Assembly: GCA_048941185.1 (NCBI GenBank)
Contig: JBHLNW010000006.1
Location: 1,115 to 65,114 of the forward strand
Direction of reading: 5' to 3'
Length of the DNA stretch: 64,000 nucleotides
Origin: Promethearchaeota archaeon
GTDB lineage: Archaea > Asgardarchaeota > Lokiarchaeia > Sigyniarchaeales > SOKP01
Shown here: positions 6,545-56,615 of the stretch, piece by piece
Position numbering within the stretch: the stretch's first letter is position 1
Layout of the letters: each line of letters begins with the position of its first letter
The notes under the pieces: model-generated
What the model was told of the DNA's origin: nothing
The model's database searches: none
The model's input: the letters and a program-made list of their open reading frames with translations, nothing else
Position numbers and translations under genes: made by a program

Positions 6545-7423
6545 CTATAGATTAAACTTTTCTAATAGGCCAGATAGTCTTGTACGATGAAACTTCAATC
6601 CTAATTCATCAGGACTAAATCCCATTGCTAAAGCATATAATTCTGTTAAGTATAAAACAGGTATATCGTATTCAGATTCATACATCTTACCTAAGTCTCT
6701 TTGTCGAGTATCAAATTGTTGAAAACATGCAGGACAATTTACAACAATAACATCTGCTCCTGCTTTTTTAATACTATCCATTTTTTTCTTGAAATTTGCC
6801 ATTCCATGTTCCTCATAAGCATTTGTTACTGCTGAACCGCAACAAAGGGCTAATTCTTCATAATCAACGACTGTAGCGCCAGAAGCGGTAACCAATTCTT
6901 TTAAGTTAACTGGTCGAATTGGATCATCAGACTCCATCCATTCAGCAGGTCGCATATAATGACAACCCGGATGACAAGCTACCTTAAGACCACTTAATTG
7001 CTTAGCTATATTACTTCTGATTTTATCCATACCGACTTCATCTTTCAATACATCGACAAAATGTTTTACGTCAATAGATCCTTTAAATTCCTTCCCGATT
7101 TTCGCTAGTTCTGAATTAACCTTATCTTTCTTTAGACTATCATGCTTCAATTGATGTTGAACTCCTCTTAATGTATTAGCACACCCATTACACAATGATA
7201 CAATATCTTTCCCTTCTGATTCTGCTAAACAAAGATTTCGAGCTCCTATTACTAACCACGCATTATTATCGAAACTTTTGACTCCAGTTGGATCTGGACA
7301 ACAAGAAAATGGTGCTTGAGAAGTTTCTACACCTAGTTTATCAAAAACTTTTCTTGAGGCAGCTTCAATAAAGGGGATTCTATTACCAATAGTACATCCT
7401 TCAAACATTTTATATTCTGTCAT
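6545..7423 (-). CDS. hdrB: heterodisulfide reductase subunit B (two CCG domains)
   Basis: Cys-rich CCG-domain signatures (..FSCCPDP.., ..LCCGSA.., CPACF). Lies directly downstream of hdrC. Confidence 0.85.
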   Translation of the reverse strand: MTEYKMFEGCTIGNRIPFIEAASRKVFDKLGVETSQAPFSCCPDPTGVKSFDNNAWLVIGARNLCLAESEGKDIVSLCNGCANTLRGVQHQLKHDSLKKDKVNSELAKIGKEFKGSIDVKHFVDVLKDEVGMDKIRSNIAKQLSGLKVACHPGCHYMRPAEWMESDDPIRPVNLKELVTASGATVVDYEELALCCGSAVTNAYEEHGMANFKKKMDSIKKAGADVIVVNCPACFQQFDTRQRDLGKMYESEYDIPVLYLTELYALAMGFSPDELGLKFHRTRLSGLLEKFNL

Positions 7424-7442: not shown

Positions 7443-7958
7443 TTATTTTAATTTTTTAACAGCTCCTATATTCTTTAGTAATGTTTGTACTTCATTTACA
7501 TCAGGGTTTGCTACAGCTGGTAAACCTAATTGATCTCTTCGCCTCTCAATTGCAGGTTGTGAAGGAATTGCCTTAGCATTTTCAAATACAGCCTTTGCTT
7601 GCGAGTATATAAATTCGGGACCTTTACCTAGAGCAATACTTTCATTCTTTAAGAATGTAAAGATCTCTGTAAGTTCAATAGATTGAGGGCATACCTCATC
7701 ACACGTATCACATACAGTACATCCCCAAATTCCTAACTCATCTCCTCCAAGGAGTAAATCTTTATATCCTAATAATGCTGCTAAAATATTGTTTCTAGGA
7801 TTATATCCTGTAGTTGTGTAGAAGTCAGTTGTAACAGCCGTAACGGGACAATTATCGCTACAACGGCTGCATTGATAGCAGTATTTAATTACATCAGGCC
7901 CAATGTGAAAATCCATAACTTGTTTCCTAAATTCGAAATTTGCTTCCATTTTTTTCAA
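7443..7958 (-). CDS. hdrC: heterodisulfide reductase subunit C (2x[4Fe-4S])
   Basis: CYQCSRCSDNCP and CTVCDTCDEVCP ferredoxin motifs. Adjacent to hdrB. Confidence 0.85.
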   Translation of the reverse strand: MKKMEANFEFRKQVMDFHIGPDVIKYCYQCSRCSDNCPVTAVTTDFYTTTGYNPRNNILAALLGYKDLLLGGDELGIWGCTVCDTCDEVCPQSIELTEIFTFLKNESIALGKGPEFIYSQAKAVFENAKAIPSQPAIERRRDQLGLPAVANPDVNEVQTLLKNIGAVKKLK

Positions 7959-7984: not shown

Positions 7985-8040
7985 TTTATTTATAGGCTTT
8001 AACCCCACGCAAGGGGCAGTTATATCCAATTTCTAATATT
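7985..8040 (-). promoter_or_regulatory. candidate SECIS-bearing 3' UTR of the vhuU-like ORF
   Basis: This is the only GC-rich hairpin in the 94-nt spacer between the vhuU-like stop and hdrC. On the RNA strand it reads CCCC-UUGCGU-GGGG (plus coordinates 8003-8016). I could not fold a convincing full SECIS by eye. Confidence 0.3.
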
Positions 8041-8052
8041 TTTATTAGATAT

Positions 8053-8202
8053 TCATCCTAAGCCTACATTCAACTTTCGAGAGTAAATCTCGGTGCCCTC
8101 TTCATCAACAACAGTGATGTGAGCAGCACAAGATAGTCAACAGTCAAAACAGCGGACTACCATTTCTAAGAGATTTACTACACCTTCTGGTACATCACTC
8201 AT
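8053..8202 (-). CDS. vhuU: VhuU-like selenopeptide: C-terminal Ni-binding segment of the [NiFe(Se)] hydrogenase large subunit, with in-frame TGA = Sec
   Basis: My manual translation is MSDVPEGVVNLLEMVVRCFDC-TGA-LSCAAHITVVDEEGTEIYSRKLNVGLG-stop. The TGA at 8137-8139 occupies the first Cys of the universal DPCxxCxxH motif. That motif is missing from the upstream large subunit. Confidence 0.75.
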
Positions 8203-8244
8203 TTTTTTTGTTCACTTTTCTCTTTAATTTTCAATATATTTTAA

Positions 8245-9549
8245 TTATTTAATCCATGGGTCTGGTAATTTTAAACCATCTAGTGCCTTGTCTTCAAATA
8301 CCTGTTTAGCAACATGCATTAAGGTTTTTTCAATCCCTGCAATATTATGGTTTGTTGCTACTAAGAGGTTTGCTTTCTTACATATTCCATCACCATCTGA
8401 AAAGATGTGATATAATAATATACCTCTTGGAGCTTCCACTAATCCAACACCATCGGCTTCTCTTGGTTGAACATCTAATGTTTTACAATCAGGATTTACG
8501 ATATCAGGATCTTGAAGTAACGTAGCAATCATTTCTATAGATTCTACCAATTCGATTAACCTTGCCCAATGATATGCGAATGTATGGTGAGATACTAAAC
8601 CCACCTTAGCTCGCATTGCCTTTAATGCCTCATCAGCTAATGGTGTTGCCATTTTATCAGCTGCATTAATCATAGCTAATGTATTTGCTCGATATATGCC
8701 TTCCGGATATCCTGCTGGTTTATAATACATATGAGTTGCATAAGAATGTTCTGGAATATATTCTCCCAGTGCATCTAAATATTTTTGAGGAGGGTAATCA
8801 GTTTTCTCCCCTTCTGGGGATACTATCCTGAGATCTCCCTCATAAATATCATGAACTCCATTCTTAGTCATACCAGCATAATAGGTAGGCACTACTCCTA
8901 CGTTAGCCACTACATCCCAATAATCTTCTACGACCTTTAAACCAATATCTACAGTTTTTTTAGTCCATTCCACTTGATCTTGTATTTGTTTTAAAAATAG
9001 ATCACGAGCATCTTCATCCATAGCTTTTTTCATTCCACCAACTATTGCAGAAATTGGATGAACTGATTTACCACCAATCGTTGCACATAATTTTTGGCCA
9101 AAATCCATCATTTTTAATGCCATCGCACCTACATCGGGCATTTGATTTATTACATGGACGACATTCCTTAATGCAGGATCTGCCATAGGTCCGAGTAAGA
9201 AATCTGGTGCAGCTAAAGCATAAAAATGTAAAGCGTGGGATGAATATTGCTTGGCATTAATTAATAATTTTCGCAATTTTAAAGCCGGAGTTGGAATTTC
9301 AACTTGCCATGCATCTTCTACTGCTTTAGTAGGGGCTAAGTGATGAGGTATTGGACAGATTCCACAAATACGTGGAGTGATTCTCGGAATATGTTCACAA
9401 TATCTGCCTTCCAGAAACTTTTCAAAAAATCTCGTAGAAGTAATATTAAACTGAACATCTTGCACCTTTCCATCATCACCTAAAACTAATCTCAATCCAC
9501 CATGTCCTTCTAATCGAGTGACTGGTTCTACTTCTATCTCTTTTACCAT
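8245..9549 (-). CDS. vhuA: [NiFe] hydrogenase large subunit, group 3 (Mvh/Vhu-like), lacking the C-terminal Ni-binding motif
   Basis: N-terminal Ni motif RICGICPIPHH is present. The 434-aa protein ends ..LKLPDPWIK with no DPCxxCxxH. Confidence 0.9.
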   Translation of the reverse strand: MVKEIEVEPVTRLEGHGGLRLVLGDDGKVQDVQFNITSTRFFEKFLEGRYCEHIPRITPRICGICPIPHHLAPTKAVEDAWQVEIPTPALKLRKLLINAKQYSSHALHFYALAAPDFLLGPMADPALRNVVHVINQMPDVGAMALKMMDFGQKLCATIGGKSVHPISAIVGGMKKAMDEDARDLFLKQIQDQVEWTKKTVDIGLKVVEDYWDVVANVGVVPTYYAGMTKNGVHDIYEGDLRIVSPEGEKTDYPPQKYLDALGEYIPEHSYATHMYYKPAGYPEGIYRANTLAMINAADKMATPLADEALKAMRAKVGLVSHHTFAYHWARLIELVESIEMIATLLQDPDIVNPDCKTLDVQPREADGVGLVEAPRGILLYHIFSDGDGICKKANLLVATNHNIAGIEKTLMHVAKQVFEDKALDGLKLPDPWIK

Positions 9550-9553: not shown

Positions 9554-10864
9554 TTATACTCCTCCTTTTCTTGATGCTAAAGTAAATTTTTCAAAAGTGC
9601 CAATGTGATCTTTCACCTGAGAAAGTATCTCTGATTTATTTAAATCTACATTAAATCCTTTAATTATTGTGTCTGCGAATCTCTCTGCTTGATTAACACC
9701 CCATACTGTCTGACCATAACAGCCAGTACAAGGAGCATTAACTCTTATACATAAAGCACCGCAGCCAGCTCTAGTGACAGGGCCCATACAGACATATCCT
9801 TGTTCTATAAGACAATCATCCATATTAGGAAGCCCTTCATAATCTCTCTTTACTCGAGTCATAGTTGATTTGCTTCCGATAATTCTCGGACATGTATCAC
9901 AAACATTTGATATTTCAGTAAAATCACGGTTATTGCCTAGAAATCCTAGTAAAGTGGATGAAATCTCTTCTGTTGTTGGTGGTAAATTCGCTAAGGGTGT
10001 TTCAGGAGCACCTCGTTTCTTGATTTGTTTTAATATATCTCCTGCTAGATCAAAACCTGCCATAAGTGGTACACCTAAAAACAATGTTGAGAACTCAAAT
10101 ATGGATTTTTTATCACCTGAACTGAGTGGTGTAAGATTTTTCACCATATTATTTAATTTGTCAGCTCTGGAATCCACTGTTTTAGCTGGTCCGTAACAAC
10201 CTACACATGGTTTATTTTCACTTGTACATTTTAAATTACAACCTATACTAGTGATAGAACCAAAACATAAATGACCTGCATCTAACAAACAATTATCTTT
10301 AATACTACAATCATTACAGAATGCGAGATCATTCATTGGGAATGGTTTTTGACCTAGTAAAAATACGACGGCACTGATAATTTGCTCTGGTTTTGGAGGA
10401 CAACCTGCCATGTAAACATCTACATTAATAACTTCATCAACATTAATCACTTTATCCTGAAATTCAGGAACATGTCGGGTTGGAATTGTAGGGGTTTCAT
10501 TTGTAGCGGATTCAATTTCTACAAATTTTCGTTTTTTTAGTGTTTCGATATCCCATTGGTTCGCTAATCCTGTTACATTTCCATATGTAGCACAACTGCC
10601 AAATGCAATGATTAGTACACATTTTTCCCTCATTAATTTGACACTTTCCAAGTCTTGTTTAGTTCTTATCGAACCTTCGATAAAACCCACTAAGATAGAC
10701 CCCGCATCTCTAGCTTTCAATGAATCTTCTTTAAAATCGACTACAGCTGGCCAATATACAAATTCAAGTGCTGGTAGAACGGGCAACAATCCCAAATGTG
10801 CGTTTAGGAGGGATTGGTGACAGCCCCAACAGTCACTTAGTTGCATAAAAGCTACTTTCACCAT
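9554..10864 (-). CDS. mvhG: [NiFe] hydrogenase small subunit, group 3 (MvhG-like), extended
   Basis: N-terminus MQLSDCWGCHQS is the proximal-cluster motif. Two Cys-rich modules ending PCxGCYG. Lies immediately upstream of the large subunit. Confidence 0.85.
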   Translation of the reverse strand: MVKVAFMQLSDCWGCHQSLLNAHLGLLPVLPALEFVYWPAVVDFKEDSLKARDAGSILVGFIEGSIRTKQDLESVKLMREKCVLIIAFGSCATYGNVTGLANQWDIETLKKRKFVEIESATNETPTIPTRHVPEFQDKVINVDEVINVDVYMAGCPPKPEQIISAVVFLLGQKPFPMNDLAFCNDCSIKDNCLLDAGHLCFGSITSIGCNLKCTSENKPCVGCYGPAKTVDSRADKLNNMVKNLTPLSSGDKKSIFEFSTLFLGVPLMAGFDLAGDILKQIKKRGAPETPLANLPPTTEEISSTLLGFLGNNRDFTEISNVCDTCPRIIGSKSTMTRVKRDYEGLPNMDDCLIEQGYVCMGPVTRAGCGALCIRVNAPCTGCYGQTVWGVNQAERFADTIIKGFNVDLNKSEILSQVKDHIGTFEKFTLASRKGGV

Positions 10865-11294: not shown

Positions 11295-11858
11295 TCAAAA
11301 AGAGCCGCACCCATTGCATTTTCCATCAAGATATGCGGCACAATCATTACAAACATTTCCACAGTTCTCCTCTTGGCTTTTTTGGCTGAAGAGATTAAGT
11401 GGCAAAAATTTAGGTGTGATAAGTTCTGACACAAAAATGGTAGCAGCATGAAGAATCCCTTTTTTATTTGTAGGCCCACAGAAATTAATATATCTATGTA
11501 AAACATCAATACTTTGACCAATTATCCCTAAAATTAGATTATATTGACCGGTTACGTGTGCTAACAAAAAGACTCTGGGACAAGCTTCATATGCTTTAAT
11601 AATTTTTTGAACTTCGTCGTAATTACTCATTTCCATTAATATAATTGCAACTTTATACTTAAGGTTATTTATATTTGTATTAGCTTGAATTTTAAGAATC
11701 CCAGTATCTTCTAATTTAGAAATACGCTTTGCAATTCCAGTATGACTCATAGTCTCAGTACCGGATTTAAAAATTATTTTTTCCAAGTTTGTTAAACTTT
11801 CACGACCATTGTCAAACAACGCATTTAATATTTGTTTGTCTATTCCATCTAATTGCAT
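11295..11858 (-). CDS. Lrp/AsnC-family HTH protein with Cys-rich C-terminal tail
   Basis: IDKQILNALFDNGRESL..IAKRISKLEDTGILK HTH followed by an RAM-like domain. The tail is CGNVCNDCAAYLDGKCNGCGSF (C-x3-C-x2-C-x7-C-x2-C). Confidence 0.7.
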   Translation of the reverse strand: MQLDGIDKQILNALFDNGRESLTNLEKIIFKSGTETMSHTGIAKRISKLEDTGILKIQANTNINNLKYKVAIILMEMSNYDEVQKIIKAYEACPRVFLLAHVTGQYNLILGIIGQSIDVLHRYINFCGPTNKKGILHAATIFVSELITPKFLPLNLFSQKSQEENCGNVCNDCAAYLDGKCNGCGSF

Positions 11859-12244: not shown

Positions 12245-12832
12245 ATGAAAGTTTCTAGTAATATTATTATGCCATTAGATCAGATTGATAAACAGATTCT
12301 AAGTGCATTGTTTAATGATGGACGTGAGAGCTTAAGTTCCTTAAGTAAAAGTATTAAGAAATCTAATCATGATACTATGAGTCATGCAGGAATTGCAAAC
12401 CGTATTTCTAAATTAGAAGATTCAGGTACCCTTAAAATTCAAGGAAATATAAGTGTTAAGAACTTAAATTACTATGTAGCATTCATTTTGATGGAAATGA
12501 AAAATTATGAAGAGGTTCAGAAAGTTAGTGAAGCGTATGTGGAATGCCCAAGAGTTTTTTTATTAGCACATGTGACTGGTCAATATAATTTGATATTTGG
12601 AGTAATAGGGCAAGATATTGATGCTTTGCGCAGATATATTAACTTTTGTGGTCCTACAAATAAAAAAGGAGTATTACATTCTGCAATTATATTCACTGCT
12701 GATTTTATAGTACCTAAATTTCTCCCTCTTAACCTTTTTAGTGGCATAAGTAAAGAACATAAATGTGAGAATATATGTAAGAGGTGCGATGCCTTTATTG
12801 ATGGTAAATGCGGTGGGTGTGGTAATTTTTAA
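12245..12832 (+). CDS. Lrp/AsnC-family HTH protein with Cys-rich tail (paralog of 11295..11858)
   Basis: Collinear with the neighbour along its whole length. The tail is CENICKRCDAFIDGKCGGCGNF. The two genes are divergently oriented. Confidence 0.7.
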   Translation: MKVSSNIIMPLDQIDKQILSALFNDGRESLSSLSKSIKKSNHDTMSHAGIANRISKLEDSGTLKIQGNISVKNLNYYVAFILMEMKNYEEVQKVSEAYVECPRVFLLAHVTGQYNLIFGVIGQDIDALRRYINFCGPTNKKGVLHSAIIFTADFIVPKFLPLNLFSGISKEHKCENICKRCDAFIDGKCGGCGNF

Positions 12833-13193: not shown

Positions 13194-13841
13194 GTGAACA
13201 AAAAATTTCTACGATTGTTCATACTGGTATTCTTTATTTTCGCAATAATAGGTACTGTCAGTGCGTGGCCAGGTTATATGATAGAATGGGAAGAAACAGA
13301 TCATGGTACATGTCATGCGGGAACATATACAGAGTCAGCAGGTACATTATCTGCAACTATTTCACCCGCAAATATTACAACAGCAATAATCGATCCCGGA
13401 ACTCAATTTAATGTTACACTTACTATAACTGGATTTACAGCAGCGGCAAATAAGCACGTACTAGTTGGTATATCCGCTCGAATTAGTGATAATCATAATT
13501 TCTTTTTTGGAGTTTATAATTATTCAGGAGAACTTGTATCATCGGCGTTTGAGGTGGGATTAGATGCTTCTGGAAATGGTAATAGTACTGTAACAATGAT
13601 TGTATTTGCTCCTGTAACAGGTGGTAGTCATACATTAACTATTGTAGCTGTTGACGGTGGAGAATCATTCCCAACAGTCCAACCATTTAATTATATTAAA
13701 ACATTAATAACTGTCACCGTTAAATCTACTTCTGCTGGAGGAATTCCTGGATTTGAACTAATCTTTATCTTTGCTTCCGCACTTCTTGCCATTATCCCCA
13801 TAGTTCTCGTTATACTCCATAAAAAAAAAGCAAGGAGATGA
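13194..13841 (+). CDS. secreted single-Cys 'HxxCH' domain protein with PGF-CTERM-like anchor (candidate monoheme c-type protein)
   Basis: GTG start and signal peptide ..IIGTVSA. HGTCH, with the Cys codon at 13311-13313, is the only Cys. Beta-rich T/V/S domain. Tail is PGFELIFIFASALLAIIPIVLVILHKKKARR. Confidence 0.6.
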   Translation: MNKKFLRLFILVFFIFAIIGTVSAWPGYMIEWEETDHGTCHAGTYTESAGTLSATISPANITTAIIDPGTQFNVTLTITGFTAAANKHVLVGISARISDNHNFFFGVYNYSGELVSSAFEVGLDASGNGNSTVTMIVFAPVTGGSHTLTIVAVDGGESFPTVQPFNYIKTLITVTVKSTSAGGIPGFELIFIFASALLAIIPIVLVILHKKKARR

Positions 13842-13847
13842 TTTGAA

Positions 13848-14513
13848 ATGAAAAGAAATAAAATATTCATTTTAGTTGTAATAGCAGTTTTAATGGTGGG
13901 AATTATCGGGACAAGTGTGGCATATCCAACAGAAATTCAATATTATCAAGGAGCTTCACATACAGGCTGTCATGGCTCGAGTGATGCAGCCTTATCAGGA
14001 ACCTTAACCGTATCAGCATCAACTTCAGGAAGATTAATTACACTTACAAGCTCAATTCAAGGTTTTGCTGATGCTCTTGAATCTAATAATAATAGATCGG
14101 GAAGTTTCGCTATTGCTATTCCTTTCGAACTTGGAGATAATAAAGAATTTGGTTTAGGAATTGCACAAAACACCGTAAATGGGGTAACTGATTATTGGGG
14201 TGTTGGGATATGGGAAGTTGAATTAGATGCGAATGGTAATACAGTTAATGCACTGAGATTTAGAGTATTAGCACCTCAAGCTGATGGAACTTATAATTTA
14301 ATGGTCGCTGTCGTAAACGCTATGAATACAACTGGTGCCGCACAAAATATTATTTATCTACATAAAGCAGTAGTAGTCACTGTGACTTCAGGTTCTATTA
14401 CGATTGCTTCTTTAGTGCTATTTATTCCATTCAACAGTGTATCATTACTCGTTTCTGGTGGGATTATTGCATCTGTAGTAATTATCTTATTAATTAGACG
14501 TAAGAGAAAATAA
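13848..14513 (+). CDS. secreted single-Cys 'HxxCH' domain protein, C-terminal TM anchor (paralog)
   Basis: Signal peptide, then HTGCH (Cys codon 13968-13970) as the only Cys. GDNKEF motif shared with the paralogs. C-terminal TM followed by RRKRK. Confidence 0.6.
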   Translation: MKRNKIFILVVIAVLMVGIIGTSVAYPTEIQYYQGASHTGCHGSSDAALSGTLTVSASTSGRLITLTSSIQGFADALESNNNRSGSFAIAIPFELGDNKEFGLGIAQNTVNGVTDYWGVGIWEVELDANGNTVNALRFRVLAPQADGTYNLMVAVVNAMNTTGAAQNIIYLHKAVVVTVTSGSITIASLVLFIPFNSVSLLVSGGIIASVVIILLIRRKRK

Positions 14514-14638
14514 AATTTAACTTAAATTTTTTTTTTTTTATAATCTCAAATTTTAAATGTTAAAAAAAAATGTCTTAAATGAAAAAATAGTAATTTTTAT
14601 GAAAGAAAATCAAAATTATAAATTTAAAATATTCTATA

Positions 14639-15370
14639 ATGAATTTCCCGAAATTATTTAAATCCAATTTCATATTAATCCTTTCTTTAATAATATTAAT
14701 AACTAATTTTCTTCTAATTGTAACATTGACTTCGTTAAACTTAATAATATGGGGAAGTCCGAATCGTATAGTATATATAATTTTTTTTTACCATGTTTCT
14801 GGCGCATGGCTAGCATATTTATCATTTGGTATAAGTTTATTATTTCACGTCCTTTATTTAAAGAAAAGACAAATAAATTGGAACCGTTTAGGTACAAATA
14901 GTATTATTGTTGGAGTATTCTTTACTACATTTACTTTGATTACTGGATCATTATGGTATAATGCCACTTCTGGAGATTATAATAACGTTTTTTGGCAGTG
15001 GAGTGATGGGAGACAAACTATGACCTTAGTATTACTTTTATGTTATCTAGCTTACCTAATATTTAGAAATTTGATTGAGGATAAAGAAAAAAGAGCAAAA
15101 TTATCTTCAGTCCTTGGTATCACATTATTTCCTACAATTCCCTTAAGTTACTTCTCAGCAATTATATTTACAAGTTTACATCCCTTAATTAATCCGACTC
15201 CAGGAGAACCAGGAAATATATATTGGGATCCAGTTAAATTATTTATGTTAATTTTTAACTTAATTGGAATAACCATTTTATTTTTATATGCTATTCAAAG
15301 ATTAGGAGAATTAGATAAAGCAAAAGAAAAGTTAGATATAATTATACAAAAAAGGTTAGTGGAGGAATAA
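14639..15370 (+). CDS. ccmC: heme exporter/handling protein CcmC
   Basis: Six TM segments. First heme-ligand motif YHVSGAW, a divergent WWD region FWQWSDGRQT, and second His motif TSLHP. Confidence 0.8.
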   Translation: MNFPKLFKSNFILILSLIILITNFLLIVTLTSLNLIIWGSPNRIVYIIFFYHVSGAWLAYLSFGISLLFHVLYLKKRQINWNRLGTNSIIVGVFFTTFTLITGSLWYNATSGDYNNVFWQWSDGRQTMTLVLLLCYLAYLIFRNLIEDKEKRAKLSSVLGITLFPTIPLSYFSAIIFTSLHPLINPTPGEPGNIYWDPVKLFMLIFNLIGITILFLYAIQRLGELDKAKEKLDIIIQKRLVEE

Positions 15371-15375
15371 TTTAA

Positions 15376-15528
15376 ATGTTACTACAATATTTCTATCCCG
15401 ATTTAATAACAATAAGTGTTAGTTATATATTATTTTGGTTAGTTATTATATTTCTAATTTTATATCCTAAAATTCGATTAAAGAAGATATTGAAAAGAAT
15501 TGAAAAATTAGATAAAAACTTAAAATAA
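15376..15528 (+). CDS. ccmD: CcmD-like small single-TM protein (not in ORF track)
   Basis: My manual translation is MLLQYFYPDLITISVSYILFWLVIIFLILYPKIRLKKILKRIEKLDKNLK (50 aa). It sits in the canonical slot between ccmC and ccmE. The assignment rests on position and topology only. Confidence 0.4.
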   Translation: MLLQYFYPDLITISVSYILFWLVIIFLILYPKIRLKKILKRIEKLDKNLK

Positions 15529-15532
15529 AAGG

Positions 15533-15886
15533 ATGATAGTGATGAAGCTGAAAAAGACTAAAATTATAGCAATAGTTGGAATCGCTATATCTGTGATCAT
15601 TATAATCACATTGCTTACAACAAGTGCACGCCCTTACCTTAAGGTTTCTCAAGTCGCTTTAAATCCCTCAAAGTATGATAATAAACAAATTCAGATTATA
15701 GGGATCGTTGAGGGATTTGCTGGTAACGATTTTAATTTAACTGAAAGTGAATATAGCATTTATATTGATATAAACGGATTGCCTCCTCCAACTGATTTGA
15801 AAAATGGAATTGAAGTTGTTGTAACTGGTCTATTTAATTCCTCCTTGATTTTAGTTGCTACTCAGATTCTTACACAATGTAGTTAG
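15533..15886 (+). CDS. ccmE: heme chaperone CcmE, Cys-type, C-terminally truncated variant
   Basis: N-terminal TM anchor and an OB-fold-like body. The C-terminus ..VATQILTQCS aligns with E. coli ..ADEVLAKH(130)DENY, putting the Cys (15878-15880) at the heme-binding position. The protein stops one residue later. Confidence 0.7.
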   Translation: MIVMKLKKTKIIAIVGIAISVIIIITLLTTSARPYLKVSQVALNPSKYDNKQIQIIGIVEGFAGNDFNLTESEYSIYIDINGLPPPTDLKNGIEVVVTGLFNSSLILVATQILTQCS

Positions 15887-15893
15887 ATCCTAT

Positions 15894-16619
15894 TTAATCA
15901 TATAAAAGATAATCTGAAGTTAAAGCCATAATTGAGCTCATTAGAATAATATGGGCACAAAAAAATATTATTTCATAGTATAAACTTGTTATTACTTCAC
16001 CTTCCAGGATTTTTATATTGATTGAAATAATGGGTGTAATAATGGGAAGAATCAAGGGAAAAAGCAAAATTGGTAAAATAAAAGATTTATTTTTAACATA
16101 CATAGAGAAAGCAGATACTAAACTTCCGCATATAGACAGATCTAATGTTGGTAATAACACTCCCAAAATAATATAAATTATTAATTGAGTTACATTAAAG
16201 TTGCTTATTGAAGGTGCGGATATAAAAGTACTAAACAGAAAAAGGATTATCTCTATAAAAGTTAATAATATTAGACAAAAGATGATTTTACTTGCAATTA
16301 TTAGGTTAGCAGATATAGGGGATGAAAGTATTCCTCCAATTGTTCCAGATTCTTTCTCTTTAACGAAAAGTCTAGACATAATATAAACAAGTGTAAAAAA
16401 AATGATGAGCCAATTTTCAATGACAAAAATCTCTAATGGCATATTTTGATATTGAGTACCGAAATTGTATACTGAAGAAAATATAAAGATTGATATTAAA
16501 TCAAAGAGAAAAATCGAAAATAAATCATTAATTTGTCTAAGTTCAGATCTTATGTCTTTAGTTAAAATTACTTTTAGCAATTTAATCTTTGATTTTAAGG
16601 TCAAGTTCGCATTTTTCAA
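15894..16619 (-). CDS. ccmB: heme exporter membrane subunit CcmB
   Basis: About 6-TM, 241-aa protein immediately downstream of the ABC ATPase within the ccm locus. Confidence 0.65.
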   Translation of the reverse strand: MKNANLTLKSKIKLLKVILTKDIRSELRQINDLFSIFLFDLISIFIFSSVYNFGTQYQNMPLEIFVIENWLIIFFTLVYIMSRLFVKEKESGTIGGILSSPISANLIIASKIIFCLILLTFIEIILFLFSTFISAPSISNFNVTQLIIYIILGVLLPTLDLSICGSLVSAFSMYVKNKSFILPILLFPLILPIITPIISINIKILEGEVITSLYYEIIFFCAHIILMSSIMALTSDYLLYD

Positions 16620-16631
16620 AATAAGATCCTC

Positions 16632-17345
16632 CTAAAAATAAGATTTAATTTCAGTTTCATTGAATTGCTCATTTAAAAAAGCTTTATTGATTTTTCCTTG
16701 TTTTAATATTATTAAATCATCGCAAATTTGTTGGAATACTTCAATTTTATGTGTTGCAAGTATTATCGATATTTTTTCATTATTTTTTAATTCTTTAAAG
16801 AAATTAATTAACATGGCAGTTGCATTATAATCTAATCCTGAAAATGGTTCGTCTAAAAATAATATTGAAGGGTTATGTATTAAAGCTCTAATTAATTCAA
16901 CTTTTTGCTTCATCCCATGGGATAGAACTCCTACAGGTTCATTTATCCAATCTTTTAAATGAAATTTTTCTACTAATTGTTCAATTTTTGACTTCAAAAT
17001 AGTTTTTTTAAAATTTAGATGTAAATTACCATAAAATGTTAAATTTTCAAAAATAGTTAGTTCTTCATAAAGAAAGGATTCATCAGTGGTAATTCCAATA
17101 TTTTGTTTTAAAATGTTTGAATGATCTTTATAGCTCATACCCTCAATTTCAATAGTCCCAAAAGTGGGTTTGAGCAATCCTGATAAAATTTTAATTAAAG
17201 TCGTTTTTCCGGCCCCATTCGCTCCTGCTATCCCAAATATAGTATTTTCTCTTATCATAAAAGATATTTTTTTAAGTGCAAGGAAATATCCAAATTGCTT
17301 TGATATTTTATTACATCTTATTATATTTTTATCGGATTTATCCAT
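16632..17345 (-). CDS. ccmA: heme exporter ABC ATPase CcmA
   Basis: Walker A GANGAGKTT, ABC signature LSHGMKQKV and Walker B ILFLDEP. Confidence 0.8.
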   Translation of the reverse strand: MDKSDKNIIRCNKISKQFGYFLALKKISFMIRENTIFGIAGANGAGKTTLIKILSGLLKPTFGTIEIEGMSYKDHSNILKQNIGITTDESFLYEELTIFENLTFYGNLHLNFKKTILKSKIEQLVEKFHLKDWINEPVGVLSHGMKQKVELIRALIHNPSILFLDEPFSGLDYNATAMLINFFKELKNNEKISIILATHKIEVFQQICDDLIILKQGKINKAFLNEQFNETEIKSYF

Positions 17346-17422: not shown

Positions 17423-20400
17423 TTATTTAATAAATCGTTTTGTTCTTGAAGTTTTTATTATAATTACTATTCCTGCGATAATTATACTAATTATGCTAAA
17501 ATATAATGAAAAGTCAATAATTTGTTCAATAGTTATTATGTTGTTGGATTTTGATTGTTCATTAACAATAATGTTGTCATATATCATATTCCAATTATTA
17601 TGAGTATCATTTGCGTAAATAATTACAGATATATCCCCTAGTGAATTTGGGATCCAATTATTAACTTCCCAGGTATTTCCAAAGATATTAATCATAGAAT
17701 GATTCGAACCTTCATATTCAATAATGACATCAGAGACATTAGAAAAATCTATAATCTCCACTTGGATCGAAATAGACTGTCCAATCGTTATAGTTTTATC
17801 ACTTATAACTAAATTAGAAAATATAGGACCTTTTGTATCAATGACAGTAATGTTATTCTTTAATGATATTTTGTTATTTTGAGAGTCAATAGCATGAAGT
17901 CTATAGAATTTCAAGCCTACATTACTTAGTGTCCAATTAAAATGCCAAGTTAATCCTCCGTAATTTGTCATAGAATAATTGTTTCCGTTATGCTCAAACA
18001 GAACAAGATTTATTGGAGAAAAATCAAAAATATCAACTTGAAACGATGCAGTGTTACCTAATTCTAATGGATCAGTATTTTCTATTAAATTTGATAAAGT
18101 TGGTGCATTAGTATCCAGTACAGTAATATTGCCTTCAATATAGTGCCAATTATTATTCGTATCTTCTCCAAATATTGTATATAATTTTAGACCTACAGAA
18201 TTCGGAATCCAATTATATTCCCATGTTGATCCTCCGATATTTATCATTGTGTAATTCACACTATCAGTTTCTATTAGCACTTGACTAATACCAGATAAAT
18301 CTGTCACATTAACTTGGATTGTTTCTGTTTGTCCTAACTCTAGAGGATCCACACTTTCTACAAGATTATTTAACGATGGTTGCACTGTGTCTTGAACGGT
18401 TATTGAATTGCTTAAAGAATTCCCATTTCCTTCGGTATCGATTGCATATATTTTATAAGATTTCACTCCAGTACTAATTGGATTCCAACCATTATATTCC
18501 CATATCGATCCACCAATATTTGCCATCGTATAATTCATGCCACTAATTTCTATTAAGACTTTGTTGATTGCTGATAAATCTGTAACATGGATTTGGATTG
18601 TTTCTGTTTGCCCCAATTCTAAAGGATCAGCACTTTCAAATAAATTAGATAAAGTTGGACCATTGGTATCTACTACATTGATATTGCTAGTTAAAGAGTT
18701 CCAATTTCCCTCATTGTCACTTGAGTATATTGTATATGATTCCAATCCAATATTAGCTGGAATCCAATTGTTATATTCCCATACTGAACCCCCAATATTT
18801 ATCATCGTATTATTCACACTATCAATTTCTATTAGCACTTGATTGATACCTGATAAGTCAGAAACGTTAATTTGAATTGTTTCTGTTTGTCCTAATTCTA
18901 AAGGATCAGCGCTCTCAATCAAATTAGATAATGTTGGACCGATAGTATCCACAATAGAAATATTAGCTATTAATGAGATTATATTATTACTTGTATCGTT
19001 AGCGTAAATAGTATAAAATTTTATTCCTGTGCTTGTAGGGTTCCAATTATTGTACTCCCATGTTATTGAATTTATTTTTGACATAGTATAATTAATACCT
19101 TCAATTTCAATATATACAGAACTTATTGGTGCCAAGTCAATAACATCAATTCGGATTATTTCTGTTTGTCCCAATTCTAAAGGATCAGTACTCTCATATA
19201 AGTTTGATAAAATAGGTGCAGTAGTATCAATTACTTCAATAGATCCATTTGTAAAATTCCAGTTATTTGATTTATCTTGAATGTAAATTGTATATAAATG
19301 TGTATTTACAGTACTAGGTACCCAGGTGTCATTTAACCATGTATTTCCTCCAATATACGACATTGAATGATTTGTTCCTTCAAATTCAATTTTAACTTGA
19401 TTAATCCCTGATAAATCTGTAGCATCAATTGAAATCAATACCGACTTTCCGAATTCAAGAGGATCATAACTTTCTGTTAAATTTCCAAAATTGGGAGGTG
19501 TTGTATCTATGACTAATATACTTTCACTAATTAGATTCCAATTATTAAAAGAATCATTAGCATAAATTTTAAATAATTTTGTTCCTACTGTATTTGGTTG
19601 CCATGTATATTCATATCTTTTTCCCCCTATATTTACCATTGTATAATTAGAGATTCCAAGTTCAATAAGTACTTTACTCACTCCATCGCTATCATTAACA
19701 TCAACTTGAATTGTCTCCGATTGCCCTAATTCCAACGGATCAGCACTTTTTGATAAGTTTTGAATTGATGGCCCTGATGAAATAAAAACTTCAATAGATC
19801 CAATTGTTGTATTTAAATTGTTACTGTTATCAATCATGTAAATAGTGTAATCAAAAATTCCTACAGAGATAGGTTTCCAATTAGACCACTCCCATTTATG
19901 TAATCCTTTGAAATTCATTGTGTGATTACTGTTATCATATTCAAGAAATACATCTTTCACTCCTGATCCTGGGGAGTCATAAACTTCAATTGAAATTGTC
20001 TCATTCTGTCCCAATGGGAGAGGATCAGCACTTTCTATTAAAAAATTATATGTTGGAGCTATTGTATCTTCCACATTAATACTATTAGTTATTGAATTCC
20101 AATTTCCTTCAGTATCACTAGCATAAACTGTATATAATTTTGTTCCGGTACTTGTTGGAGTCCAACTATTATATTCCCATATTGAACTACCGATATTTAT
20201 CATTGTATAATTTACACTATTAATTTCCAATAATACTTGATTAATGCCAGATAAATCTGTCACATTAACTTGGATTGTTTCTGTTTGTCCTAACTCTAAA
20301 GGATCGGCACTCTCTACCAAATTAGATAATACTGGAACTGTTGTATCAATTACATTGATATTTCCATTCATCGAATTCCAATTGTTAATCCCGTCTTTTG

Positions 20401-21916
20401 CATAAATATAATATGATTTTAATCCAGTAGTTAAAGGAATCCAATTGTTGTATTCCCAAGTTGAGCTACCAATTTTTGTCATAGTATAATTTACATTATT
20501 GATCTGTATAAGAACCTGTGTAATACCTGATAAATCTGTTACATTGATTTGAATTATTTCAGTTTGTCCCAATTCTAAAGGATCGGCATTTTCAATTAAA
20601 TTGAAAAGAAAAGGAGCTGTAGTATCTTGAACAGTTATTGAATTACTTAAAGAGTTCCAATTTCCTTCGGTGTCATTTACATAAATTGTATAACCTTTGA
20701 CTCCAACTGATAATGGAGTCCAGCTATTGTATTCATATCTAATTCCTCCTGTATTTATCATCGTATAATTTATCCCACCTAATTCTATAAAGACATTACT
20801 AATACCAGATAAATCTGTTACATTAATTTGAATCACTTCTGTTTGCCCTAACTCTAATGGATCCGCACTTTCTATCAGATTTGTTAATGATGGTTGTACT
20901 GTGTCTTGGACGGTTATTGAATTGCTTAAAGAGTTTCCATTTCCTTCAGCATCATTTACGTAAATCACGTAGGGTTTTATCCCTGTACTAATTGGTGTCC
21001 AATCATTATATTCCCATATAGAACCTCCGATGTTTGCCATCGTATAATTCATGCTACTAATTTCTATTAAGACACTATTGATTGCTGATAAATCAGTTAC
21101 ATTAATTTGTATTGTTTCTGTTTGTCCCAATTCTAAAGGATCAGCACTTTCAACTAAATTAGATAAATTCGGTGCTGTAGTATCAGTTACGAGAATATTT
21201 CCAGTTATTGAATTCCAACTTCCATCTGTATCACTAGCATAAATTATGTAGTTTTTAACACCAGTTGTACTCGGATTCCAATTATATTCAAAAGTGTTGC
21301 TTAAAATGTTTGTCATAGTGTAATTTTGTCCTGCTAATTCAATTAAAACTACGCTAACGCTTGTTTCTGAATCGGTTACATCTACCTGAAAGGTTTCTTG
21401 TTGCCCAAATTCTAAAGGATCACTGCTCTCAATAAGATTACTAAATTGAGGAGGAGTGTTTTCTACTTGGACAGTCAGTACTAAATCTCCATGTGCAAAA
21501 TAGGAAGCTGAACCTCCTGCTCTATATATAGCATCAGCATGGAGAGTATAAGTCTGTGCAATAGAGGGGGCAGTAACTTGAAAATTTATAACTGTTGAAT
21601 CTCCAGAACTACCTATTGAAACTGATTTTTGAGTTGTATCAAAAGTAAAATCTTTATTATCACCCAGACCTGGATTCCCACTTGGGAATCCAGCAACAAT
21701 ATTATTCCCTTGAGCTTCTGAGAAGCTTAACACTTGAATGCTAACTACAAAATTTTCATTTGGAGTAACAGATAATCCTGAACTTGATGACAATGTTACA
21801 TATCCTGTAGCACTCTGCGTGATATTTCCATGGCAACTAGCATGACCTTCTCCTGTAAAATCATTAAAATCTTGCGTTCTAGCTATAGCAAGACCTATAA
21901 TTGAAAAAACCAGCAT
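17423..21916 (-). CDS. giant surface protein: N-terminal single-Cys 'HxxCH' domain, 14 tandem Ig-like repeats and a C-terminal TM anchor
   Basis: 1497 aa with exactly one Cys (GHASCH, codon 21833-21835). The N-domain shares GDNKDF with the small paralogs. Many N-x-S/T sequons. C-terminal TM followed by a basic tail. The true start may lie upstream of the ATG (see findings). Confidence 0.8.
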   Translation of the reverse strand: MLVFSIIGLAIARTQDFNDFTGEGHASCHGNITQSATGYVTLSSSSGLSVTPNENFVVSIQVLSFSEAQGNNIVAGFPSGNPGLGDNKDFTFDTTQKSVSIGSSGDSTVINFQVTAPSIAQTYTLHADAIYRAGGSASYFAHGDLVLTVQVENTPPQFSNLIESSDPLEFGQQETFQVDVTDSETSVSVVLIELAGQNYTMTNILSNTFEYNWNPSTTGVKNYIIYASDTDGSWNSITGNILVTDTTAPNLSNLVESADPLELGQTETIQINVTDLSAINSVLIEISSMNYTMANIGGSIWEYNDWTPISTGIKPYVIYVNDAEGNGNSLSNSITVQDTVQPSLTNLIESADPLELGQTEVIQINVTDLSGISNVFIELGGINYTMINTGGIRYEYNSWTPLSVGVKGYTIYVNDTEGNWNSLSNSITVQDTTAPFLFNLIENADPLELGQTEIIQINVTDLSGITQVLIQINNVNYTMTKIGSSTWEYNNWIPLTTGLKSYYIYAKDGINNWNSMNGNINVIDTTVPVLSNLVESADPLELGQTETIQVNVTDLSGINQVLLEINSVNYTMINIGSSIWEYNSWTPTSTGTKLYTVYASDTEGNWNSITNSINVEDTIAPTYNFLIESADPLPLGQNETISIEVYDSPGSGVKDVFLEYDNSNHTMNFKGLHKWEWSNWKPISVGIFDYTIYMIDNSNNLNTTIGSIEVFISSGPSIQNLSKSADPLELGQSETIQVDVNDSDGVSKVLIELGISNYTMVNIGGKRYEYTWQPNTVGTKLFKIYANDSFNNWNLISESILVIDTTPPNFGNLTESYDPLEFGKSVLISIDATDLSGINQVKIEFEGTNHSMSYIGGNTWLNDTWVPSTVNTHLYTIYIQDKSNNWNFTNGSIEVIDTTAPILSNLYESTDPLELGQTEIIRIDVIDLAPISSVYIEIEGINYTMSKINSITWEYNNWNPTSTGIKFYTIYANDTSNNIISLIANISIVDTIGPTLSNLIESADPLELGQTETIQINVSDLSGINQVLIEIDSVNNTMINIGGSVWEYNNWIPANIGLESYTIYSSDNEGNWNSLTSNINVVDTNGPTLSNLFESADPLELGQTETIQIHVTDLSAINKVLIEISGMNYTMANIGGSIWEYNGWNPISTGVKSYKIYAIDTEGNGNSLSNSITVQDTVQPSLNNLVESVDPLELGQTETIQVNVTDLSGISQVLIETDSVNYTMINIGGSTWEYNWIPNSVGLKLYTIFGEDTNNNWHYIEGNITVLDTNAPTLSNLIENTDPLELGNTASFQVDIFDFSPINLVLFEHNGNNYSMTNYGGLTWHFNWTLSNVGLKFYRLHAIDSQNNKISLKNNITVIDTKGPIFSNLVISDKTITIGQSISIQVEIIDFSNVSDVIIEYEGSNHSMINIFGNTWEVNNWIPNSLGDISVIIYANDTHNNWNMIYDNIIVNEQSKSNNIITIEQIIDFSLYFSIISIIIAGIVIIIKTSRTKRFIK
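17555..21454 (-). repeat. 14 in-frame tandem coding repeats of about 279 bp (about 93 aa)
   Basis: The consensus unit is xPxLSNLxESADPLELGQTETIQINVTDLSGIxxVLIEIxxxNYTMxNIGGSxWEYNxWxPxSxGxKxYTIYAxDxEGNWNSxxxxIxVxDT, recurring 14 times. Units 2 and 11 are nearly identical. Confidence 0.9.
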
Positions 21917-22253: not shown

Positions 22254-23972
22254 TTAGTCGTTCTGTTTGAATTGCCTCTTTGTTGGAAAAAAGCTAATAA
22301 GAATTGAAGGAACTATCCCTATCATTAGTAATATGAATCCTGGAATGAAAAAGATATCTTGAAAATTAGCTGACATTAAAAATCCAGCAAGAATTAAGGA
22401 GATTCCAGCATGAATTATTGTTTTTGAATTTAACCTAAAAAAATATTTAATCCCCCTTTTTAAATTTAAATTCTTCGCTAATTTGAAGATAGAAGAAAAA
22501 AATGACATCATGTAAATCCATAGCACTGGATTTATCCAGATATTAGATACAAATAACAAGATAAATGACAATATAATTTGAATTAATAATCCTATAACTA
22601 TAACTGATACTATCCCTTTAATGCTAAAACTTTCCCATAAAGAACAAAAAATCAATGATAAAGCTAAACCTGTTGCTAAAATTAAAGAAGTTATAATAAA
22701 ATATTCGGGACCGATGCTAACAATATTTATTGGAACTAAATTTGAAAGAAGATAGGTGAATGGAGGGATAAACAGCCCAAAGATACAGACAAAAGCTAAA
22801 CCAAATAAAAAAATATAACTTAAATAATCAAAAAATAGTTTTTTATTCCGATATTCCTCCATTAAATAATCTAATACTATATAAATTACATAAAGGGGAA
22901 GCAAGATTAGTACTAGGCCTAAAAGTACTACCCAAATAACTAGTTCTGCCCCTTCAGTAAACGTATGAAGCGAATTTAACCCTCCTCCACGTGTAATTAA
23001 TGTCGAAAATACAATTGAAGAAAAAATTAAAGCTACATTTATCTTTATTAATATGGGTTTTTTTTTCTTAAAAATCACGGTATGAAAGAAAGCTGTTATA
23101 AAAAACCATGGAATGAGGGAAACTGTTTCGACGGGATCCCAACCCCAATACCTCCCCCAAGTTAAAGCAATTTTAGCCCAATACGCACCTAATCCTATGC
23201 TTAGGGACATAACTAACCACCCAAATTTTAAGGCGAAATTATAGAATTTATCCTGATATAATTCTATAAGTTTTGATTTAGGAGTTATGACTTCAGCGAT
23301 TATTATTGTAAATGGCACTAAAAAAACAGCATAAGCGATAAATGTAAAAAAAGGATGCCAAATCATAAATGGAGATATTAAAAGTGGATTTAAACCTAAC
23401 CCATCAGAAGGAGAAGATGATTGAAGTTCAAAAGGATTTAAGTAGAATAATATTATTAAGAAAATTGATGAAATTATTGATGACAAAATAACTGAGCGTA
23501 TAAAAACTAAATCTTCGTTATTATGATTCCCAATCCTATAGAAATTAATTATTATTGAATTAAATAACATCCAAGTCATAATTGATCCTTCTTCACCAGC
23601 CCAAATTGCTACAATTTTATAAATTAGAGGAAGGGAATTATTGCTATAATACATTACATATACAATTTTATAAGAGTTATTTACAAAACTGTAAACCATA
23701 ATTAAAAACAAAAACAATGATAAGTTCATGGCTAACATAGTTAAAAAATAGACGTTCTGTTTTTTAGTAATTAGAAAAATGAGATCCAAGACCATTATGA
23801 TAATTAGAAAAATGATTGAGAGACTACCCATTAGTGATATAAAAATAATTCTAAAATTTACTTCTATTGTATTTAATAACAATGGAATTACAATTATAAT
23901 GATGAGAATTAAAATCAAATTAAGAAAAACAGTCTTTTTCACAGACCAATTACTACGCATTAAACAAATCAC
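22254..23972 (-). CDS. ccmF: cytochrome c heme lyase/handling protein CcmF
   Basis: Polytopic membrane protein with the WWD motif WGRYWGWDPVE and His motifs (WHPFFTF, NSLHTF). Confidence 0.85.
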   Translation of the reverse strand: MICLMRSNWSVKKTVFLNLILILIIIIVIPLLLNTIEVNFRIIFISLMGSLSIIFLIIIMVLDLIFLITKKQNVYFLTMLAMNLSLFLFLIMVYSFVNNSYKIVYVMYYSNNSLPLIYKIVAIWAGEEGSIMTWMLFNSIIINFYRIGNHNNEDLVFIRSVILSSIISSIFLIILFYLNPFELQSSSPSDGLGLNPLLISPFMIWHPFFTFIAYAVFLVPFTIIIAEVITPKSKLIELYQDKFYNFALKFGWLVMSLSIGLGAYWAKIALTWGRYWGWDPVETVSLIPWFFITAFFHTVIFKKKKPILIKINVALIFSSIVFSTLITRGGGLNSLHTFTEGAELVIWVVLLGLVLILLPLYVIYIVLDYLMEEYRNKKLFFDYLSYIFLFGLAFVCIFGLFIPPFTYLLSNLVPINIVSIGPEYFIITSLILATGLALSLIFCSLWESFSIKGIVSVIVIGLLIQIILSFILLFVSNIWINPVLWIYMMSFFSSIFKLAKNLNLKRGIKYFFRLNSKTIIHAGISLILAGFLMSANFQDIFFIPGFILLMIGIVPSILISFFPTKRQFKQND

Positions 23973-31044: not shown

Positions 31045-31737
31045 CTAAGTTTTAATTCGTTTTAATAAAGATTCCCAAAAAATCTTTTTATAATCACCTG
31101 AATAATTGACCTTTTCTATTATTAAAGTTATGGCTTTTTGTGAGCATGCTCTCACACACGTTCCACAACTAATGCATTTAATTTGCTTAAATGATATTTT
31201 TTTGTCTGTTGGATCTTTAATCTTCTCTTTTTCCAATTTAGAAAAAGCCCCTGAAGGACATACATCTACACATGACATACATGAAATACATTTATGCCAA
31301 TTTACACCAATTTTCCCCTCTAAATACACCTTCGCTTTGAACTGTGAATTTTTTCTCTCTACAAGCTTATACTCCAATTTTGGGACTACACTCTTAGTTA
31401 TAATTCCTAAATCACTAATTTCTATTGGTTTATTATTATATTTTAGTGATATCGCTGACATAGGACATATATATGCGCAAGTCCCACAATATGAACAAAT
31501 GAGAGGATCAGGTAAATCAGGTATTAGATCATCCTTTTTAACTCTAACTTTCCCTTCTAAATTGGGACTGAAAAAAGCATTGTTAGGGCAAGCTTTAATA
31601 CATAATCCACACCCAATGCATCTTTCAATATCGATCTTAAATGTATAATTTTCTGTAAAAAAATTTAATACAGTCTCATTGAATTCCTCTGTTAAAATTT
31701 TGCTAACTCTAGGATACAAATTCTTTTCACTTTTCAT
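31045..31737 (-). CDS. polyferredoxin (4x [4Fe-4S] motifs)
   Basis: CIGCGLCIKACP, CSYCGTCAYICP, CISCMSCVDVCP and CISCGTCVRACS. It is the last gene of the hdrCBA-mvhD operon. Confidence 0.8.
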   Translation of the reverse strand: MKSEKNLYPRVSKILTEEFNETVLNFFTENYTFKIDIERCIGCGLCIKACPNNAFFSPNLEGKVRVKKDDLIPDLPDPLICSYCGTCAYICPMSAISLKYNNKPIEISDLGIITKSVVPKLEYKLVERKNSQFKAKVYLEGKIGVNWHKCISCMSCVDVCPSGAFSKLEKEKIKDPTDKKISFKQIKCISCGTCVRACSQKAITLIIEKVNYSGDYKKIFWESLLKRIKT

Positions 31738-32308: not shown

Positions 32309-32373
32309 TTAAATCACTTTTTTATTTTTTCTGACTTTTTTATTGATTTTTTTTCTCAAAAATTTATTGAAAT

Positions 32374-35745: not shown

Positions 35746-35789
35746 TAAATATAGGTCTTTCTTTATTCTAAATACACAAATTAATTTAC

Positions 35790-41199: not shown

Positions 41200-41210
41200 T
41201 AGGTGAGAAA

Positions 41211-43183: not shown

Positions 43184-43332
43184 TTTGGTATTAATGAACT
43201 TAAATGATTATATTATTTTAAAACAAAATTTTAATTTAAAAAGGCTTTTCATAATAAAATATTAATCTTATTTTTAAGCGATTATTTAATAATTTGGATC
43301 AATAATTAAAACAGAAAGATTGAGAGAATTAC

Positions 43333-56520: not shown

Positions 56521-56615
56521 TGGAGCCAGTGATGGGATTTGAACCCATGATAAATGGCTTTCTTCCTTAGGAAAGAAGTCTGCAGGCCATCGCCTTACGA
56601 CTCGGCAACACTGGC
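56521..56615 (-). tRNA. tRNA-Cys(GCA) with a ~20-nt anticodon-loop intron and encoded CCA
   Basis: Hand fold gives acceptor GCCAGUG/CACUGGC, D arm GCCG..AGGC, and anticodon stem AUGGC/GCCAU with loop CU-GCA-G. The anticodon is at 56581-56583 and the inserted hairpin at about 56560-56579. T arm is AUGGG-UUCAAAU-CCCAU, the discriminator is U and the 3' end is CCA. Confidence 0.8.

Follow-up and report, generated by a model that had tools for sequence, protein, structure and literature searches.

This report concerns a hydrogenase locus in a 64-kb stretch of DNA from a Promethearchaeota archaeon (contig JBHLNW010000006.1; the whole stretch is referred to as the window, and all coordinates are window positions). 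The locus comprises genes for a [NiFe]-type hydrogenase, all on the minus strand, in which the small subunit gene vhuG is followed by a large subunit divided between two genes, vhuA and vhuU. The second of these contains an in-frame TGA, which is taken here to encode selenocysteine (Sec), and ends in a candidate selenocysteine insertion sequence (SECIS) of the type called lokiSECIS. The genes and features, with lengths in amino acids (aa) and the support for each in brackets, are as follows:

9554 to 10864, minus strand: vhuG-like gene for a [NiFe] hydrogenase small subunit, 436 aa (PF01058; NF045875, VhuG; PDB chains 9sfi_I and 5odc_E)
8245 to 9549, minus strand: vhuA, large subunit of 434 aa, cut off before the C-terminal Ni-ligand motif (PF00374; NF041785; 9sfi_g)
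8053 to 8202, minus strand: vhuU, predicted selenoprotein gene of 49 codons, stop codon included in the coordinates (translation; NF041786; alignment to MvhA residues 424-453 and to 9sfi_M; found in 76/76 loci)
8137 to 8139, minus strand: in-frame TGA, read as Sec, at the first Cys of DPCxxCxxH (invariance; alignments)
7991 to 8068, minus strand: whole 3' element, a three-way junction of helix I, the SECIS hairpin and GC hairpin 3 (minimum free energy (MFE) fold; RNAalifold; covariation)
8020 to 8056, minus strand: lokiSECIS core (agreement with the definition in PMC4989117; single-sequence MFE fold; compensatory changes)
7443 to 7958, minus strand: hdrC-like subunit gene with Fer4_8, the likelier start being the ATG at 7949 (PF13183; TIGR03290 as best NCBIfam family)
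6545 to 7423, minus strand: hdrB-like subunit gene with two CCG domains (PF02754; TIGR03288, E value 2.7e-85, profile positions 1-289 of 290)

VhuA carries the N-terminal motif PRICGICPIPHH (RxCGxCxxxH) and has the C-terminus ...LKLPDPWIK, without a DPCxxCxxH motif. After a spacer of 42 nucleotides (nt; 8244 to 8203), the ATG at 8202 opens vhuU, which reads MSDVPEGVVNLLEMVVRCFDC, then the TGA (8139 to 8137), then LSCAAHITVVDEEGTEIYSRKLNVGLG, up to the terminal stop TGA at 8055 to 8053. VhuU thus consists of 28 residues through the His and a C-terminal extension of 21 residues, its Sec codon being UGA-22, and the small open reading frame (ORF) supplies the ligands before which VhuA ends. An earlier interpretation of this DNA, made without database searches (the sequence-only reading), had described a large subunit with RxCGxCxxxH and without its C-terminal Ni ligands, and its coordinates and residues (434-aa VhuA, 42-nt gap, ATG at 8202, TGA at 8139-8137) are correct throughout. 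Its placement of the TGA at the first Cys of DPCxxCxxH stands as well, by alignment to MvhA and 9sfi_M, with the refinement that the canonical Pro is replaced by Cys, the Ni-ligand motif of the window being D-C-U-x-x-C-x-x-H. The genes hdrC and hdrB follow directly downstream of vhuU, which agrees with its description of an operon running into hdrC-hdrB and is borne out by the matches to TIGR03290 and TIGR03288.

When VhuA and VhuU are fused into a single query, the contiguous MvhA chain 5odc_F is matched end to end across the junction (residues 4-469, E value 1e-110). In this alignment the TGA falls on the first Cys of DPCLSCATH, to which VVNLLEMVVRCFDC[U]LSCAAHI corresponds in the window, and VhuU covers the C-terminal ~28 residues of contiguous MvhA. 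The TGA likewise coincides with the first Cys position of 7t2r_D and 9sw2_F, and 9sfi_M has an X there; xxCxxH is kept. The top PDB match of VhuA is 9sfi_g, a chain of 418 aa (residues 4-418, E value 1.4e-123), and the same entry holds a separate Sec-containing chain of 27 residues, 9sfi_M, that matches the window peptide. Entry 9SFI is the Methanococcus maripaludis VhuADGU hydrogenase within the Hdr-Vhu-Fwd assembly (structure 2026; PMC13518236). Among NCBIfam families, VhuA is best matched by NF041785 (VhuA; profile positions 3-417 of 418, E value 4.6e-140) and the peptide by NF041786 (VhuU; E value 2.9e-14). The VhuA/VhuU arrangement of Methanococcus, which the sequence-only reading had invoked, is therefore recovered in families and in split chains alike, and the check that it had proposed, an alignment of the peptide to VhuU and to the C-terminus of MvhA, succeeds with both (9sfi_M and 5odc_F). 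VhuG is longer than the solved VhuG and MvhG chains (288-308 aa) by an insertion of ~130 aa, so that 9sfi_I and 5odc_E match it in two stretches (E value 1e-55); its top NCBIfam family is NF045875, at 251.9 bits and under the cut-off of 450.

The conservation of the locus was followed in 80 genomic loci taken from species-representative genomes, 76 of which cover the vhuU region; the natural Cys homologue P0141 served as query in the representative search with the peptide. Following the published definition, a lokiSECIS consists of AUGA, a stem of 9 base pairs (bp), a loop of 11 nt that begins with about five A and ends in AG, and then GA, or AA in VhuU (Mariotti et al., 2016; PMC4989117). The window element reads GG-AUGA(8056-8053)-AUAUCUAAU-AAAAAUAUUAGAA-AUUGGAUAU-AA, in which the UGA of the AUGA is the vhuU stop codon, helix II pairs AUAUCUAAU with AUUGGAUAU over 9 bp (8052-8044 with 8030-8022), the apical loop AAAAAUAUUAGAA spans 8043-8031 and AA follows the stem at 8021-8020. 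The Sec codon lies 80 nt upstream of this core. AUGA is kept in nearly all of 73 relatives, two having UUGA, and after the stem, where the window has AA, the relatives divide between AAC and GAC. Helix II was compared across 54 distinct aligned sequences: double-sided compensatory changes occur at six of its nine pairs, and pairing holds in 95.5% of cells; none of 500 shuffles reaches the observed values, and slide controls drop to 28-46%. VhuU is listed among the Loki selenoproteins and the AUGA of VhuU.1 also doubles as its stop codon (PMC4989117), so that the citation of this work in the sequence-only reading was accurate, and the terminal UGA inside the SECIS core fits the minimal-distance idea of the same authors. 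No SECIS family of Rfam was found at the vhuU locus, even at E values up to 10; this is expected, because existing SECIS tools miss the Loki type, of which 25 sequences have been reported (Mariotti et al., 2016; PMC4989117), and it is not counted against the SECIS. A loose structure-aware scan for further lokiSECIS elements in the window returned six other loci, against 0-3 in shuffles, which were rejected; the best placed of them (50949, plus strand), downstream of an ordinary membrane protein, is a match by chance in AT-rich sequence.

An element of this kind bears on the most durable of the competing explanations, by which near-cognate decoding, or a local recoding signal unrelated to Sec, puts a standard amino acid (Cys or Trp) at the UGA and the enzyme is of the [NiFe] rather than the [NiFeSe] type. 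Homologues with a genuine Cys codon (TGC) at the Sec position do exist, though they are rare, and are evidently viable (the database peptides P0141 and P0144), and the window shows no Sec machinery. In the Cys-type loci L083 and L084, vhuU is likewise a gene separate from that of a 434-aa VhuA; it has lost the SECIS stem and its tail reads ...DTDSG instead of ...NVGLG, and in L081 and L082 the SECIS is recognisable but eroding and the tail reads ...NVKQE. Since these genes are still split from VhuA, the split does not depend on Sec. Retention of the 3' element and of the VGLG codons is confined to genes with TGA, which would be expected of features that serve Sec insertion. Moreover, the element has the AUGA, the A-rich loop and the [G/A]A signature of the SECIS elements on other Asgard selenoprotein genes, and most Lokiarchaeia genomes encode a full Sec pathway. 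Readthrough as a standard amino acid is consequently improbable.

The position of vhuU in the operon varies among the loci. The order vhuG-vhuA-hdrC-hdrB-vhuU is found in six of them (L006, L058, L061, L068, L070 and L075) and also in the Cys-type locus L081. Where vhuU comes last, oligo-U tracts follow immediately after the SECIS; in the window-type order there is none between vhuU and hdrC, which suggests that the SECIS of the window sits inside a polycistronic mRNA.

Truncated VhuA proteins of 434-435 aa form more than 120 protein clusters at an identity of at least 83%, mostly labelled Asgard, Promethearchaeota or Lokiarchaeota, and VhuA of the closest representative genome is 96% identical. 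The small ORF has TGA at the same codon in all of the loci that cover it (76/76), and LSCAAH after the TGA is invariant. Across 70 unique nucleotide sequences the TGA does not change, while adjacent Cys codons switch between TGT and TGC. Diversity at the first, second and third codon positions amounts to 0.096/0.018/0.325 before the TGA and 0.122/0.033/0.383 after it in the same sequences, and this dominance of third positions marks the sequence as translated and as held by purifying selection before and after the TGA. The sequence-only reading had found the frame and the U-x-x-C-x-x-H spacing preserved past the TGA. TGA terminates 8 of the 47 long ORFs of the window, so the genetic code is not reassigned. 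In a large protein database, 22 of 24 called versions of the peptide had been made with a code in which TGA is Trp; they have W in place of Sec and a second W at the stop (...GLGW...), running past the true stop into the SECIS, and thereby confirm both TGAs independently. Public metagenome entries (P0121-P0140, P0142, P0143 and P0146) show the family systematically mis-annotated with Trp.

Were the TGA instead a true stop, nothing after it would be translated and the large subunit would be a decaying pseudogene, broken up by a nonsense mutation together with a stop upstream of it. TGA is indeed a normal stop elsewhere in the window, and ORF calling with table 11 ends at it, leaving only a fragment of 25 aa in another frame, in line with the earlier observation that standard ORF calling misses vhuU. 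A decaying gene is hard to reconcile with a TGA that is identical in 76/76 loci down to 83% VhuA identity, with coding-type periodicity past the TGA, with an invariant LSCAAH ligand motif and a covarying SECIS, and with the same split architecture in a purified and solved enzyme; the pseudogene is thus highly improbable and already effectively refuted by the conservation data. The remaining alternative, that split and TGA are an assembly or sequencing artefact of one metagenome-assembled genome, has next to no probability left, for although the window probably stems from such a genome and the related locus L059 has a probable frameshift within vhuU, the artefact is already refuted by replication of the same architecture in 76 independent assemblies, which come from many studies, and in 22 database peptides that were called independently.

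The locus is very likely an Asgard (Promethearchaeota/Lokiarchaeia-type) vhuG-vhuA-vhuU-hdrC-hdrB operon that encodes a split cytoplasmic group-3c [NiFeSe] hydrogenase with UGA as Sec. The gene anatomy, the homology, the conservation of the TGA, the selection after it and the covarying SECIS structure are direct observations. Several points weigh against this assignment. The equivalog cut-offs of NCBIfam are missed by VhuA (466.9 against 800 bits) and by VhuU (52.6 against 70, with Cys substituted for Sec); these cut-offs are tuned to Methanococcales, and under the NCBI criterion the window genes count as homologues rather than as equivalogs. The apical loop of the SECIS has 13 nt instead of the published 11, its AG being followed by two extra A. 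This longer loop occurs in the window and 12 close relatives, most other loci having exactly 11 nt ending in AG, and it falls inside the 8-20 nt allowed by the type I SECIS model of Huang 2024 (PMC11227280). No tRNA-Sec, EFSec/SelB, PSTK, SepSecS or SelD was found within the 64-kb window. Finally, actual Sec insertion and the processing of the peptide are inferred for Asgard VhuU.

With only 64 kb at hand, the Sec capacity of the host rests on the literature for the lineage. A complete Sec pathway has been reported in Lokiarchaeota (PMC4989117), Sec is used by 85.9% of Lokiarchaeia/Helarchaeales genomes, and a FrhA/MvhA/VhuU selenoprotein occurs in 68.3% of Sec-using Asgard archaea (PMC11227280). 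As to tRNAs, ARAGORN found none in the window, and the tRNA that Rfam places at 56524-56615 (minus strand) was rejected as tRNA-Sec, since it forms an ordinary 7/5-type cloverleaf with anticodon GCA and an intron of ~20 nt. This sole tRNA of the window, 92 nt long and missed by ARAGORN, is apparently a tRNA-Cys (GCA) with the intron in its anticodon loop.

In the split enzyme, VhuA would provide the N-terminal pair of Ni ligands (RxCGxC) and VhuU the C-terminal pair (U-x-x-C-x-x-H). The UGA at 8139-8137 would be decoded by EFSec with Sec-tRNA upon a signal from the eukaryote-like lokiSECIS downstream, and the stop UGA within the AUGA core is presumably too near the SECIS for recoding. Maturation proteases generally trim a C-terminal tail from [NiFe] hydrogenases once Ni has been inserted, and such cleavage has reportedly been shown for VhuU of M. 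voltae. For the window protein, it is the 21-residue tail past His28 that would presumably be cut off by a maturation endopeptidase after Ni insertion, and an indirect hint of such cleavage may be seen in the deposited M. maripaludis VhuU chain, which has 27 residues against the 45 positions of the VhuU profile. The resulting VhuU of ~28 residues would then complete the VhuA active site, an arrangement known from the M. maripaludis VhuADGU structure. The ORFs scanned included no recognisable maturation endopeptidase of the HycI/FrhD type.

A Cys-Sec dyad (D-C-U) was considered as a special redox feature of this active site and is weakened by the comparison, as one relative has D-F-U and other peptides of the split type have C, N, L or P at this position; the residue before Sec seems relaxed in the split forms compared. 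Besides the Cys that stands for the canonical Pro of [NiFe] large subunits, Asgard VhuU has a second Cys at -4 (R-C-F-D-C-U; codons at 8140-8142 and 8149-8151 of the window, minus strand).

The SECIS core is part of a larger 3' element of 78 nt (8068-7991), which has an MFE of -24 kcal/mol and a z-score of -4.16, none of 200 shuffles being as stable. RNAalifold gives the same three helices, and 70 of 73 relatives individually fold into the same junction. Helix I pairs 8068-8060 with 7999-7991, and its 5' strand is made of the last Val-Gly-Leu codons, GUWGGYUU, which pair with AARCCWAC downstream (AAGCCUA in the window). Two of its pairs covary, 5:82 (UA in 37 sequences, AU in 14) and 8:79 (CG in 31, UA in 20); the 5' members of both are synonymous third positions, and all four combinations are present, each matched by its partner. 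GC hairpin 3 (8017-8002), of 3-5 bp, lies in the 3' side of the internal loop and is followed by an A-rich bulge; its stems among relatives include GCCC/GGGU, GCCCC/GGGGU and ACCU/AGGU. The 'lower stem' signature described for frhA by Huang 2024, [U/C]GG_C[C/U][A/G] (PMC11227280), corresponds to the centre of helix I, so that the lower helix is at least partly known. On the GC hairpin the main texts of Mariotti et al. (2016; PMC4989117) and Huang 2024 (PMC11227280) are both silent. On the basis of these folds and alignments one might propose that the recoding signal of vhuU goes beyond the published simple hairpin, as a three-way junction with a third arm reminiscent of the euryarchaeal GC upper stem, a proposal that we regard as doubtful. 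The formation of helix I by the Val-Gly-Leu codons would explain why the ...VGLG tail is invariant although it belongs to a peptide region that is probably cleaved; it looks held by the RNA (helix I and AUGA), not by the protein.

Much of this is already known for the lineage, since VhuU, the eukaryote-like SECIS and their distribution in Asgard archaea were published in 2016 (PMC4989117) and 2024 (PMC11227280). Loki VhuU.1 (PMC4989117; family 'FrhA/MvhA/VhuU' in PMC11227280), from the same phylum, is likewise a single-Sec peptide of ~50 aa downstream of a non-Sec VhuA, with an AUGA doubling as stop, a 9-bp stem, a loop beginning with AAAAA, and AA after the stem. Apart from coming from another genome and belonging to a subclade with a 13-nt instead of an 11-nt loop, the window gene does not differ from it in substance. 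With the Methanococcus VhuA/VhuU system the window shares the split large subunit of ~418-434 aa with its small U-x-x-C-x-x-H peptide, as well as VhuG and an association with Hdr, which for the window is predicted. It differs in having D-C-U where Methanococcus has D-P-U, a SECIS of the eukaryote-like kink-turn type rather than the euryarchaeal GAA_A type, hdrCB instead of vhuD/vhuB in the operon, and a VhuG that is ~130 aa longer. The contiguous MvhA of the MvhAGD-HdrABC complex (Methanothermococcus and Methanothermobacter; PDB 5ODC) has the same group-3c fold and ligand motifs, but it is made as one polypeptide, has Cys where VhuU has Sec and lacks a SECIS. The eukaryotic type I SECIS (kink-turn core AUGA...GA, helices I and II with an internal loop, A-rich apical loop), for its part, has the AUGA core, the A-rich apical loop and a helix I closing the internal loop in common with the window element, whereas the latter has a shorter helix II (9 bp), AA on the 3' side of the core and a GC hairpin in the 3' side of the internal loop that makes a three-way junction. 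The 5' strand of its helix I and its core furthermore lie in coding sequence and stop codon, and no SBP2 is known in Asgard archaea, unlike in the eukaryotic setting.

The partner subunits expected of an electron-bifurcating Mvh/Vhu-Hdr complex (small subunit G, MvhD/VhuD, HdrA, HdrB and HdrC) are all encoded within the window. The hydrogenase would couple to HdrABC/MvhD, and both the formation of such a complex and the direction of H2 metabolism are what we infer from these genes. Besides the vhu operon, two further gene groups belong to this context:

32374 to 34793, minus strand: hdrA (660 aa; NF040770, 888 bits) and mvhD (PF02662), identified by profile matches
40147 to 45735, plus strand: clustered [NiFe] maturation genes hypE, hypD and hypF

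A second hdrCB pair lies beside hdrA and mvhD (cluster 36422-32374). Sec codons were looked for in hdrA and mvhD of the window, and both turned out to be uninterrupted Cys forms. In the interval 31045-36422 (minus strand), hdrC-hdrB-hdrA-mvhD is followed by an unknown ORF of 193 aa and a polyferredoxin. A fused HdrC/B-like protein of 447 aa is encoded at 26648-27991 (plus strand) beside a FAD_binding_4 protein (25048-26544), and a third hdrC/hdrB-like pair lies at the window end (62128-63680, plus strand). A VhuG paralogue of 466 aa (36817-38217, plus strand) stands alone, without an adjacent large subunit, and is divergent from the second hdr cluster; a second split or recoded large subunit next to it was sought and is not present, and the genes that come next encode an MFS transporter and HypE. 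Directly upstream of the vhu operon, two paralogous AsnC/Lrp-type helix-turn-helix proteins (11295-11858, minus strand; 12245-12832, plus strand) share a Cys-rich C-terminal tail (CxxC...CxGCGxF), and they are possible metal- or redox-sensing regulators of the operon. Genes of the cytochrome c maturation type are present within 13194-17345 and 22254-23972, encoding two Cytochrom_C_asm proteins, a CcmB-like protein and an ABC ATPase. Near them are a protein of 1497 aa with immunoglobulin (Ig) domains (17423-21916) and a pair of paralogues of unknown function that are secreted or anchored (13194-14513). A scan for promoters and terminators was uninformative, its consensus being bacterial and the host an archaeon.

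For the family, the locus exposes an annotation gap, in that standard gene callers overlook the Sec-bearing catalytic peptide or, where a TGA=Trp code is chosen, give it a wrong Trp. Because vhuU is missed, the large subunit looks truncated and the enzyme looks inactive in metabolic reconstructions of Asgard archaea. The junction that overlaps coding sequence, the Sec-to-Cys revertants and the alternative gene order could feed the study of how the Asgard SECIS works. If the third arm of the three-way junction is functional, for example as a contact for EFSec, the vhuU SECIS of Asgard archaea would combine euryarchaeal and eukaryotic features and as such be a concrete intermediate in SECIS evolution.

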